64,000 nucleotides of DNA from NCBI RefSeq assembly GCF_003018115.1, contig NZ_CP027457.1, one strand, 5' to 3'. Made by a program: the position numbers. Of this stretch, positions 9,001-12,000 are shown one piece after another (positions within the stretch are counted from its first letter, which is position 1; each line of letters starts with the position of its first letter). This DNA is from Escherichia coli (lineage in GTDB: Bacteria > Pseudomonadota > Gammaproteobacteria > Enterobacterales > Enterobacteriaceae).

Positions 9001-12000
9001 TGGATGCGTGACTGCCATTCTTCAGATGATAAAGACTTCATTGCAATTGATGGAAAAACGCTCCGGCACTCTTATGACAAGAGTCGCCGCAGGGGAGCGA
9101 TTCATGTCATTAGTGCGTTCTCAACAATGCACAGTCTGGTCATCGGACAGATCAAGACGGATGAGAAATCTAATGAGATTACAGCTATCCCAGAACTTCT
9201 TAACATGCTGGATATTAAAGGAAAAATCATCACAACTGATGTGATGGGTTGCCAGAAAGATATTGCAGAGAAGATACAAAAACAGGGAGGTGATTATTTA
9301 TTCGCGGTAAAAGGAAACCAGGGGCGGCTAAATAAAGCCTTTGAGGAAAAATTTCCGCTGAAAGAATTAAATAATCCAGAGCATGACAGTTACGCAATCA
9401 GTGAAAAGAGTCACAGCAGAGAAGAAATCCGTCTTCATATTGTTTGCGATGTCCCTGATGAACTTATTGATTTCACGTTTGAATGGAAAGAGCTGAAGAA
9501 ATTATGCGTGGCAGTCTCCTTTCGGTCAATAATAGCAGAACAAAAGAAAGAGCCAGAAATGACGGTCAGATATTATATCAGTTCTGCTGATTTAACCGCA
9601 GGGAAGTTCGCCACAGCAATCCGAAGCCACTGGCACGTGGAGAATAAGCTGCACTGGCGTCTGGACGTGGTAATGAATGAAGACGACTGCAAAATAAGAA
9701 GAGGAAATGCAGCAGAATTATTTTCAGGGATACGGCACATTGCTATTAATATTTTGACGAATGATAAGGTATTCAAGGCAGGGTTAAGACGTAAGATGCG
9801 AAAAGCAGCCATGGACAGAAACTATCTGGCGTCAGTCCTTGTGGGGAGCGGGCTTTCGTAATCTTGCCCTGCCAGGGCAGCAACACGATGAGGAGTCGGG
9901 GCTGTATTATAACCGTCACCGGTACTACGATCCGTTGCAGGGGTGGTATATCATCCAGGACCCGATTGGGCTGAAGGGGGGATGGAATCTGTACCAATAT
10001 CCGCTGAATCCAGTGCAACACGTTGATCCATTAGGGCTTAGTACTATGATAATAGGTAACGGCCCCGTTCCTGATAATCCTTTTGGGCATGCTGCGGCGG
10101 CAAATCGATATGGATTAATGAGTTCGGGAACTGGGGATGAGATGGGAGCCTCTGTCTCTGATTATTTTAAAAAGATGCAACCCCGCAGAGATACCTGGAT
10201 TTGGATAATAGATACAACAGATGAAGAAGAACAATGTATGATGAATAAGGCAATAGACCTTAATAAAAAACTAAAAACTATTAACCTCGGGCCTCTTCCT
10301 GTTTTAAATAATTGTTTTAGCCGAACGAACATGATTTTTGAGGCGTGCGGGTTTAACAACCCCTCTATGAATACAAATGCGCCTATAAGCCTACAAGTGC
10401 TCGGTGAGCTTTATGGATATCAAAGATATATTATGCCTAAAGGTCCTTTCACTGGATTCCCATTTGAATTTCAAGAGGTAAAGTAAATGGAAATGCTTGG
10501 GAAGATATTATTGATAATTATTTCCATGATAATTATATCTTGTGATTATTATAATGCTGGCATGGACTATCAAGATAATATAGCCCTCGAGCAAGTCGTA
10601 ACATGGGATTCTGATAATATATTCACACCTAATATCTTTGAACATAATGGAAGATGTTTTATGAAGAAAAATGAAACATGGATGTTATTAAATGGAGATG
10701 CAACACCAAACATTAGAACAATGAGCAATAAGAAAATAGAATGCCTGGAGAAGAGTGAAGTAGAATGGGCTAGTAGGGTTTGCGACAGTATCACAGACAA
10801 GGAAAGGGAAAATCTGAAGGCATTAATATGTAGCAAACCAGCTAAATCAGTTAATACAGGCAAAAGACCAGCGTTAGGATATTGAAACCGGCACTGCACT
10901 CTATCACTATTACAATCAGGGAAAGATCATCAGAAGTTCACTCTTTGTACTAAATAATTCGCATTTTATGTTTAAAAATTGAGATATTCCTCATTACCTG
11001 AAGCTGTTTTTATTGCTTATACATGATCAAATACTCCTTACATAATTAAGGAGAACAAAATGGAACTTAAAAAACTGATGGAACATATTTCTATTATCCC
11101 CGATTACAGACAAGCCTGGAAAGTAGAACATAAATTGTCAGATATTCTACTGTTGACTATTTGTGCCGTCATTTCTGGTGCAGAGGGTTGGGAAGATATA
11201 GAGGATTTTGGTGAAACACATCTCGATTTTTTGAAGCAATATGGTGATTTTGAAAATGGTATTCCTGTTCACGATACCATTGCCAGAGTTGTATCCTGTA
11301 TCAGTCCTGCAAAATTTCACGAGTGCTTTATTAACTGGATGCGTGACTGCCATTCTTCAGATGATAAAGACGTCATTGCAATTGATGGAAAAACGCTCCG
11401 GCACTCTTATGACAAGAGTCGCCGCAGGGGAGCGATTCATGTCATTAGTGCGTTCTCAACAATGCACAGTCTGGTCATCGGACAGATCAAGACGGATGAG
11501 AAATCTAATGAGATTACAGCTATCCCAGAACTTCTTAACATGCTGGATATTAAAGGAAAAATCATCACAACTGATGCGATGGGTTGCCAGAAAGATATTG
11601 CAGAGAAGATACAAAAACAGGGAGGTGATTATTTATTCGCGGTAAAAGGAAACCAGGGGCGGCTAAATAAAGCCTTTGAGGAAAAATTTCCGCTGAAAGA
11701 ATTAAATAATCCAGAGCATGACAGTTACGCAATCAGTGAAAAGAGTCACAGCAGAGAAGAAATCCGTCTTCATATTGTTTGCGATGTCCCTGATGAACTT
11801 ATTGATTTCACGTTTGAATGGAAAGGGCTGAAGAAATTATGCGTGGCAGTCTCCTTTCGGTCCATAATAGCAGAACAAAAGAAAGAGCCAAAAATGACGG
11901 TCAGATATTATATCAGTTCTGCTGATTTAACCGCAGAGAAGTTCGCCACAGCAATCCGAAACCACTGGCACGTGGAGAATAAGCTGCACTGGCGTCTGGA

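Follow-up and report, generated by a model that had tools for sequence, protein, structure and literature searches.

Layout of the locus

The 64,000-nucleotide stretch of Escherichia coli contig NZ_CP027457.1 (assembly GCF_003018115.1) analyzed here, referred to below as the window, contains a vgrG-rhs island that is flanked by pptA, yddH, nhoA, yddE and narVWYZ, in a gene order that is also annotated in strains 042 and F9792. Besides a full-length Rhs gene (3652-7845), the island holds two truncated modules carrying Rhs C-terminal toxin domains, or tips, together with three near-identical H-rpt (ISAs1/ISEc1) open reading frames (ORFs) of 378 residues each (1265-2401, 8725-9861 and 11060-12196). 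The subject of this analysis is the second of the truncated modules, module 2 (9872-10885), which consists of an orphan tip followed directly by a candidate immunity gene.

All features of module 2 lie on the plus strand. On its 5′ side, the ISAs1/ISEc1-family transposase ORF of H-rpt 2 ends with a TAA stop codon at 9861 and is followed by the 10-bp sequence TCTTGCCCTG (9862-9871), which is common to all three H-rpt copies and represents the 3′ end of the element. Ahead of the tip, the Rhs core is cut short by this element (8725-9871), whose counterpart in F9792, a strain with the identical junction, is annotated as an ISAs1 family transposase. What is left of the core is a remnant of 56 residues (9872-10039) with neither a start codon of its own nor an N-terminal shell. 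This remnant scores 71.9 bits against the Rhs_assc_core model TIGR03696 (cutoff 32.5) over residues 2-57 of a 205-residue query starting one codon upstream, and it aligns with positions 1205-1261 of the 1261 positions of the NCBIfam model NF041261, which correspond to the extreme end of the core. The boundary motif PxxxxDPxGL (10010-10039, with DPLGL at 10025-10039) lies between core and tip, in agreement with the tip start at 10040 proposed in the original prediction. The description of the tip as an orphan was likewise correct, as the full-length YD shell and the N-terminal delivery region are absent from the module 2 ORF. For this reason the tip cannot be delivered as it is encoded in the window.

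The tip comprises 148 residues and a stop codon (10040-10486, with the stop at 10484-10486). Its candidate catalytic residues are His17 (codon 10088-10090) and Cys92 (codon 10313-10315), the latter residing in an NNC motif (NNCFSRT). The stop codon of the toxin abuts the start codon of the partner gene (TAAATG), and a Shine-Dalgarno-like AAGAGG, read from the sequence, is positioned 8 nt upstream of the partner ATG (10473-10478). The partner, which is the immunity candidate, has 132 residues (10487-10885), of which residues 1-18 form a predicted signal peptide ending at the lipobox I-I-S-C, with Cys19 encoded at 10541-10543. Both open frames, as well as the peptide strings quoted in the original prediction, are present. 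The fraction of guanine plus cytosine (GC) is 0.63 in the intact core, 0.54 in the core remnant, 0.40 in the tip and 0.34 in the partner. Module 2 is closed by the transposase ORF of H-rpt 3 (11060-12196, also on the plus strand), after which pptA is the next gene.

The junction between H-rpt and core had been placed 39 bp further into the core than that of module 1. Alignment of both junctions to the intact core corrects this figure, in that module 2 retains 55 bp (approximately 18 codons) less of the core than module 1, and a 19-residue stretch of core that is kept in module 1 is missing from module 2. The H-rpt/core junctions show ambiguous overlaps of 1-3 bp (TGG, CTG), a pattern that hints at short microhomologies as the sites of insertion or recombination.

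A family of tips with a predicted permuted NlpC/P60 fold

A profile search of 1.84 billion representative sequences with the tip family recovered 353 proteins at E ≤ 1e-3 and 193 at E ≤ 1e-10. In these proteins the toxin domain is almost always C-terminal and directly follows a DPxG motif, and the carriers are Rhs, YD or teneurin-like proteins of up to 2489 residues. The consensus of the family reads NGPxxxNPFGH...PRR...TTPEQ...DNCxxR, and nine positions (N13, P14, G16, H17, A19, G25, G30, R50 and C92) do not vary among 28 diverse members that were aligned. The histidine and cysteine of this set are also conserved to at least 90% among 94 sequences, with a spacing of 75 residues in the tip and a family median of 73. 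Three cysteines had been singled out when the tip was first described. One of them, C92, is conserved family-wide, whereas C66 and C103 are confined to the enterobacterial subfamily. Conserved polar residues in the 28-member alignment (N13, S28, R50 and T59/T60) are candidates for a third catalytic residue. Among 93 relatives of the tip, the Pfam family Lnb_N (PF13387, formerly DUF4105) is matched by 6 at E ≤ 1e-3 (best value 2e-6) and by 15 at E ≤ 0.1, and PPPDE is matched by one. Judged by sequence, the tip family would be classified as an unnamed neighbor of Lnb_N/DUF4105 and not as a member of it.

An AlphaFold model of the tip, computed from the family alignment, has a predicted local distance difference test score (pLDDT) of 92.3 and a predicted template modeling score (pTM) of 0.87. 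In this model, H17 opens a strand (residues 17-22) and C92 opens a helix (residues 92-102) that is placed after the sheet in sequence, so that the predicted geometry of the two residues is the catalytic arrangement of papain and NlpC/P60 enzymes in circularly permuted order. Structural comparison of the model yields YiiX (2if6; match score 10.6), the Vibrio cholerae type VI secretion system (T6SS) effector TseH (6v98; 10.3), a YiiX-like enzyme of Bacillus cereus (3kw0; 9.0), the fatty-acyltransferase domain RID of a MARTX toxin (5xn7; 7.6), PPPDE (2wp7; 5.2) and PLAAT4 (4.5), and the best of the structural matches are circularly permuted members throughout. A Foldseek search of the AlphaFold database (AFDB50) returns the tip's own family first, followed by short proteins with a DUF4105/Lnb N-terminal periplasmic domain and by Rhs tips, at template modeling (TM) scores of about 0.8 and identities of 22-31%. 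As modeled, the tip is assignable to the permuted NlpC/P60 (papain-like) superfamily, and it represents a candidate thiol enzyme with a predicted activity. This outcome favors the earlier proposal that the His and Cys positions form a hydrolase site. The accompanying statement that no family could be assigned holds for the tip itself, which matches no profile directly, but not at the level of the superfamily or of the Lnb_N/DUF4105 neighborhood, which is reached through its relatives.

Nearest to the tip are toxin domains of the DUF4105/Lnb_N type, followed by Tox-Act1, TseH and YiiX. Apart from the single PPPDE match, sequence searches with the relatives of the tip lead to no Pfam family other than Lnb_N, and the AFDB neighbors annotated as Lnb_N/DUF4105 share 22-28% identity with the tip at a TM score of about 0.8. 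The Lnb_N domain resides in the periplasm and adopts a Cys/His acyl-enzyme fold, both of which we propose for the tip. Lnb, however, is a housekeeping membrane enzyme, whereas the tip is a 148-residue toxin cargo with an immunity gene and has no Lnb_N match of its own. TseH (V. cholerae VCA0285, PDB 6v98, Pfam DUF6695) shares 8% identity with the tip and is a stand-alone cargo effector rather than an Rhs tip, and DUF6695 has no match in the tip or in the 93 relatives. The YiiX/Peptidase_C92 proteins (PDB 2if6, 3kw0) are housekeeping proteins that have neither a toxin context nor an immunity gene, and they show no sequence-level match to the tip.

The most extensive points of comparison are provided by Tox-Act1, an effector of the T6SS encoded by Salmonella pathogenicity island 6 that has a permuted NlpC/P60 core (PMC12994826, PLoS Biol 2026). 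Tox-Act1 is toxic in the periplasm only, cleaves phosphatidylglycerol and phosphatidylethanolamine, is inactivated by the substitutions H43A and C151A, and is neutralized by Imm-Act1, a protein with two transmembrane helices (PMC12994826). The same work places Tox-Act1 as sister to DUF4105, the group of the Bacteroides lipoprotein N-acyltransferase Lnb, raises lipoproteins as possible targets of Tox-Act1, and reports a phospholipase activity of TseH (PMC12994826). The tip shares with Tox-Act1 the link to the T6SS, the permuted NlpC/P60 core with His before Cys, the NNC motif, the DUF4105/Lnb neighborhood, a membrane-associated immunity gene directly 3′ of the toxin, and the periplasm as the predicted site of action. 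The two differ in His-Cys spacing (75 residues in the tip, 108 between H43 and C151 of Tox-Act1) and in their carriers, as Tox-Act1 is stand-alone or fused to PAAR whereas the module 2 toxin is an Rhs tip. They differ further in their immunity proteins, two transmembrane helices in Imm-Act1 as opposed to a predicted lipoprotein with a single signal peptide, and in that the activity of Tox-Act1 is proven whereas that of the tip is predicted. The papain-like toxin families listed by Zhang et al. 2012 are exclusively Cys-first.

The tip is not a detectable member of Tox-Act1 in the strict sense, and homologs of Tox-Act1 are absent from the top 150 matches of the tip profile. A cross-check by accession and organism revealed no overlap between the tip family and the tables (S3/S4) of the same paper, which also delimits a broader, PSI-BLAST-based Tox-Act1 clade (S3A). 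As this clade includes Rhs-fused as well as DUF4105-annotated short toxins, the tip family may still belong to it. Three entries were considered as possible points of contact. The identity of family member P0041 with a listed Alistipes entry was ruled out. The Salmonella CBX57 entry on the TseH sheet was rejected as a copy of this tip, because it is a different orphan tip whose downstream gene does not match. The E. coli Rhs protein QMP79959.1, which appears on another sheet and has a Pfam-detectable DUF4105 tip, is probably different as well. With a degenerate DNA pattern for VTGNNCTTHS, Tox-Act1 homologs carrying this exact motif were recovered from the genomes of eight non-Salmonella enterobacterial species representatives (L012-L019) belonging to Pantoea, Lelliottia, Enterobacter, Citrobacter, Kosakonia and Kluyvera, several of them fused to PAAR-like N-termini. 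Primer-level blastn detected no Tox-Act1 in complete E. coli genomes.

Partner genes, site of action and candidate substrates

The N-terminus of the partner, MEMLGKILLIIISMIIISC-DYYNAG, conforms to the PROSITE lipoprotein rule PS51257, which specifies a lipobox [LVI][ASTVI][GAS]C with the cysteine at residues 15-35 and a Lys or Arg in the n-region. The partner has an uncharged h-region, an IISC lipobox, Cys19 and Lys6. Its lipobox-like start, which was noted in the original prediction, is invariant in homologs, as the core I-x-S-C-D-x-Y-N-A is retained among nine of them. The partner from Citrobacter farmeri has LVAC-D at this position. An alignment of eight mature partners with identities as low as 39% reveals invariant residues C1, D2, Y3, Y4, A6, C39, C68, C81 and C97, and the four additional cysteines would fit two periplasmic disulfides. 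Aspartate at the +2 position is the classical E. coli signal for retention in the inner membrane through avoidance of the Lol pathway. The corresponding residue of the partner, Asp20, is invariant, and the protein is therefore likely to remain in the inner membrane, exposed to the periplasm. Residues 2-25 of the mature protein are predicted to form a helix. Profile searches of Pfam, NCBIfam and PDB sequences returned nothing for the partner, and weak similarity to NanM/YjhT (E ~0.01-0.08) was dismissed as noise. The partner is without a known fold relative and, like the toxin, is annotated as hypothetical.

To place this partner in the context of the family, we compared the genes downstream of the toxin domain in the window and in seven further family members. 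All eight encode exported or membrane-embedded proteins. Homologous lipoproteins with the CDYY sequence occur in C. farmeri and on a metagenome contig (L010). In Solimonas sp. K1W22B-7, where the toxin domain is carried by a 2489-residue NHL/teneurin-like YD protein, the partner (L004 9980-10450) contains ankyrin repeats behind a lipobox-like signal end (SFWGC-SS), and ankyrin repeats thus appear to serve there as a periplasmic immunity scaffold. Three other loci (L005, 7300-7548; L007, ~7620-7840; L009, 2988-3221) encode partners of 66-82 residues with two hydrophobic helices, and those of L007 and L009 have a common PGLEGYE..W loop motif between the helices. By sequence, these proteins are of the Imm-Act1 type and look as though they form another conserved family of immunity proteins for toxins of this class. 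The remaining partner, at L008, is a signal-anchored protein.

Among the indirect arguments for a site of action at the periplasmic face of the membrane, the uniform export or membrane insertion of these eight partners is the strongest, and it supports the periplasmic action suggested in the original prediction. It also speaks against the possibility that the tip is a cytoplasmic papain-like protease or deconjugase resembling PPPDE/DeSI, accompanied by a partner unrelated to immunity. PPPDE is found among the structural matches and once among the relatives, but the fold matches to YiiX, TseH and the DUF4105 group are far stronger, and partner and toxin are linked both by co-divergence and by translational coupling. 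We regard this possibility as highly improbable.

The periplasmic site, together with the lipid specificity of those permuted NlpC/P60 enzymes that have been tested, makes a membrane lipid the likeliest substrate, ahead of peptidoglycan. We therefore favor, with a probability of roughly 0.6, the interpretation of module 2 as a displaced and silent cassette that encodes a T6SS toxin acting on lipids from the periplasm, together with its inner-membrane lipoprotein immunity protein. Within this interpretation, the analysis shows the orphan gene structure, the fold class, the invariant His/Cys pair, the conserved lipobox, the coupling and co-divergence of toxin and partner, the link to VgrG-Rhs in other strains and the membrane or periplasmic nature of the partners, whereas we infer the toxicity of the tip, its neutralization by the partner, the site at which the partner is retained, the expression of the genes and the substrate, the lipid nature of the last being drawn by analogy from the chemistry of distant relatives.

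Several observations weigh against this interpretation. The family is known from sequence and from a model, and its substrate is deduced from relatives that share 8-15% identity with it in structural alignments. Direct searches of Pfam (even at E ≤ 10) and of PDB sequences with two family profiles returned no match to the tip, and those of NCBIfam matched the core only. Comparison of the tip family with a Tox-Act1 profile (hhalign) yielded a 20-column match around the NC motif only, with a probability of 4.9%, and no third catalytic residue was identified in the tip. The lipoprotein status of the partner derives from the rule and from conservation. Rhs-borne toxins usually act in the cytoplasm (PMC12994826), such that a periplasmic action would be atypical for an Rhs carrier. 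The scan for promoters and terminators revealed nothing above chance, with 7 promoter-like sites around the module as compared to 5.3 +/- 2.5 in shuffled controls. Finally, NlpC/P60 enzymes include peptidoglycan peptidases, an annotation that proteins of the YiiX family frequently receive, and TseH itself was initially put forward as a cell-wall hydrolase.

With the same cassette, fold and site of action, the tip could instead be an amidase or endopeptidase acting on peptide stems, like the NlpC/P60 effectors of the Tae/Tse1 type, and the lipoprotein would then block it in the periplasm. However, the top structural matches of the tip are all permuted, and permutation of the NlpC/P60 fold creates a hydrophobic pocket that confers lipid specificity (PMC12994826). 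The tested permuted members (Tox-Act1, TseH, LRAT/PLAAT, the B. cereus YiiX-like enzyme, Lnb and RID) act on lipids, and the integral two-helix partners of three relatives, along with the inner-membrane retention signal of the window partner, suggest a target at the surface of the membrane and not in the sacculus. A peptidoglycan substrate is in our judgment unlikely.

The proximity to Lnb_N raises a further alternative, in which the tip would be an acyl hydrolase or transferase directed at envelope lipoproteins (an anti-Lnt/Lnb, or Lnb-like chemistry turned against the cell). It would remove acyl chains from their lipidated N-terminal cysteine or transfer them wrongly, with the lipidated CDYY terminus of the partner serving as a dead-end pseudo-substrate. 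Lnb_N is both the nearest Pfam family detectable by sequence and the annotation of the nearest AFDB neighbors, Lnb N-acylates lipoproteins, and lipoproteins are among the targets considered for Tox-Act1 (PMC12994826). Invariance of C1, D2, Y3, Y4 and A6 in mature partners that share as little as 39% identity is, moreover, unusual for a lipoprotein tether. Nevertheless, the two-helix and ankyrin partners lack such an N-terminus, which indicates that a pseudo-substrate mechanism would not be general, and CDYY may simply represent a sorting signal and the start of the predicted helix. We consider this alternative improbable, but if true it would define a new class of T6SS toxin target and a new immunity mechanism, with an unusual delivery to the periplasm by Rhs.

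Rhs proteins encapsulate their tips, cleave themselves at the DPxGL motif and are delivered by the T6SS. If the preferred interpretation of a lipid-targeting toxin is correct, the tip as carried by the full-length Rhs proteins of E. coli strains 042 and GF43 (see below) would be enclosed by the Rhs shell, freed at DPLGL and expelled together with VgrG through the T6SS. In the neighboring cell, the toxin would attack acyl ester or amide bonds of membrane lipids from the periplasmic side. Its most likely activity would be phospholipase or acyltransferase chemistry, in which His17 and Cys92 form the catalytic pair and an acyl-enzyme is formed on Cys92. After its export and lipidation at Cys19, the partner would block the toxin by binding to it.

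Such a system would extend the newly recognized lipid-targeting class to a large Rhs-borne family with at least 353 representative clusters, and it would provide a clear example of a toxin that acts in the periplasm yet is delivered by an Rhs carrier, whose cargo normally acts in the cytoplasm. The lipoprotein partner would represent a second and different way of neutralizing these enzymes, beside the two-helix type exemplified by Imm-Act1. The general principle, that T6SSs deploy lipid-targeting permuted NlpC/P60 toxins, is already known, having been described very recently, whereas the type of immunity protein is new. For a pair of proteins with a hypothetical annotation and no Pfam family, the placement among permuted NlpC/P60 enzymes provides a predicted activity that is amenable to testing.

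Distribution and history of the module, and other tips in the window

The pair formed by tip and partner is present in 566 of 5426 complete E. coli genomes (~10%), 543 of which match it at a coverage of at least 80%. It thus occurs in about one complete genome in ten, usually on the main Rhs protein behind VgrG, as in the reference enteroaggregative strain 042, and in a 60-genome spread sample the carriers are mostly annotated as 'RHS element core protein'. In strain GF43, the same tip ends an intact Rhs protein of 1409 residues encoded directly after Hcp-VgrG, and the same partner is the next gene. In strain 042, it ends a 1406-residue Rhs protein after VgrG at the same chromosomal locus as in the window, with the gene order yncH-vgrG-rhs-partner-...-pptA-nhoA-narZ. 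Identity between the window module and copies on full-length Rhs genes amounts to 99.8-99.9% (GF43, 4FM), or 99.6% for the copy in PCN033. Beyond E. coli, homologs of the pair were found in Salmonella (84% identity for the toxin, 81% for the partner), in C. farmeri (59-62% and 39%), where toxin and partner genes overlap by ATGA, and on a metagenome contig (57% and 47%); a Hafnia homolog shares 69% identity at the protein level. Toxin and partner co-diverge across four lineages. This co-divergence and the presence of the pair in hundreds of genomes indicate that tip and partner are real genes rather than chance ORFs.

By comparison, the exact H-rpt/tip junction of the window is rare, being found in five of the 5426 genomes, two of which are labeled as enterotoxigenic E. 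coli O169:H41. One of the five is F9792, whose layout corresponds to the window gene for gene. Because the tip of strain 042 occupies the same locus and the junction is restricted to five genomes, the simplest history is one in which this tip originally served as the main one at the locus, was displaced by a newer tip, and was then cut down by H-rpt. Module 2 resembles in this respect the orphan rhs-CT/rhsI modules of two earlier papers, in which a truncated core, a tip and an immunity gene lie 3′ of the main rhs gene as a silent reservoir and the tip has been displaced by a newer one (PMC3150448; PMC3967940). Unlike those modules, it has H-rpt on both sides, and its toxin is predicted to act in the periplasm and not as a nuclease or ADP-ribosyltransferase.

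The tip family includes an invariant tryptophan, Trp55, whose codon is an intact TGG in the window (10202-10204, plus strand) but TGA in PCN033-like strains, in which the tip belongs to the Rhs protein of the T6SS-1 cluster (L001 9334-9336). The nonsense allele truncates the toxin before the catalytic cysteine and leaves the immunity gene intact. Among 561 genomes examined with exact 61-mers, 499 carry TGG and 34 carry TGA. The split arrangement seen in strains of the PCN033 type, with an Rhs protein ending at the position equivalent to 10204 and a separate 82-residue ORF, was consequently rejected as the true structure of the gene, as it reflects a single TGG-to-TGA change at an invariant Trp in 34 of the 561 genomes. 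The partner also varies in length. Its coding sequence in F9792 is 119 residues long (L022 11153-11512), whereas the copy in the window has the full 132 residues. A 119-residue E. coli variant, P0024, lacks 13 residues in frame (DNIALEQVVTWDS, 39 bp), as seen in an alignment of P0024 itself.

These variants bear on the question of whether module 2 has any present function in the window strain. It might be a decaying remnant that hitch-hikes between H-rpt copies, with a toxin that is never made and a partner that is not expressed. The absence of a start codon and shell from the tip, the failure of promoter-like sites to exceed the shuffled controls, the shortened partners of F9792 and P0024, and the 34 genomes with a nonsense allele would all be expected under decay. 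On the other hand, both frames in the window are intact and 99.6-99.9% identical to the copies on full-length Rhs genes, and the partner retains its Shine-Dalgarno sequence and its coupling to the tip frame. Immunity that has been kept would be of obvious benefit where this toxin is a weapon available to approximately 10% of E. coli, and orphan Rhs tips are described as re-armable by recombination (PMC3967940; PMC3150448). We consider decay to be a distinct but minority possibility.

If module 2 is instead the silent cassette that we favor, its tip would be a spare that recombination with the main rhs gene could re-attach, and the intact partner gene may still protect against kin that fire the same toxin. 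The meaning for the window strain itself would be modest, namely a silent spare warhead and probably a retained immunity against common kin.

The window contains other tips as well. Module 1 (2404-3575), the other orphan, has a tip with the HExxH-like motif GHEFAHAH, which suggests a metallopeptidase, and its downstream ORF (3114-3575) has a signal-peptide-like start, MRFFMMKYLMALLSLFSASVLG, on account of which module 1 is another candidate for a periplasm-acting pair. The module 1 partner is also found 3′ of a full-length Rhs gene in PCN033 (L001 4862-5311). The main Rhs protein of the window (3652-7845) has a Cys-rich tip of no obvious family after DPQGL, and this is followed by a 174-residue ORF without a signal peptide (7846-8370), tip and ORF together lying within 7400-8370. 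At the left edge of the window, an AT-rich ORF of 212 residues (286-924; GC ~0.30) with the hydrophobic N-terminus MKRFFITCCVMTLFLFVKCKAAC lies 3′ of an apparent Rhs tip end (47-250), and its product may be a further exported immunity protein.

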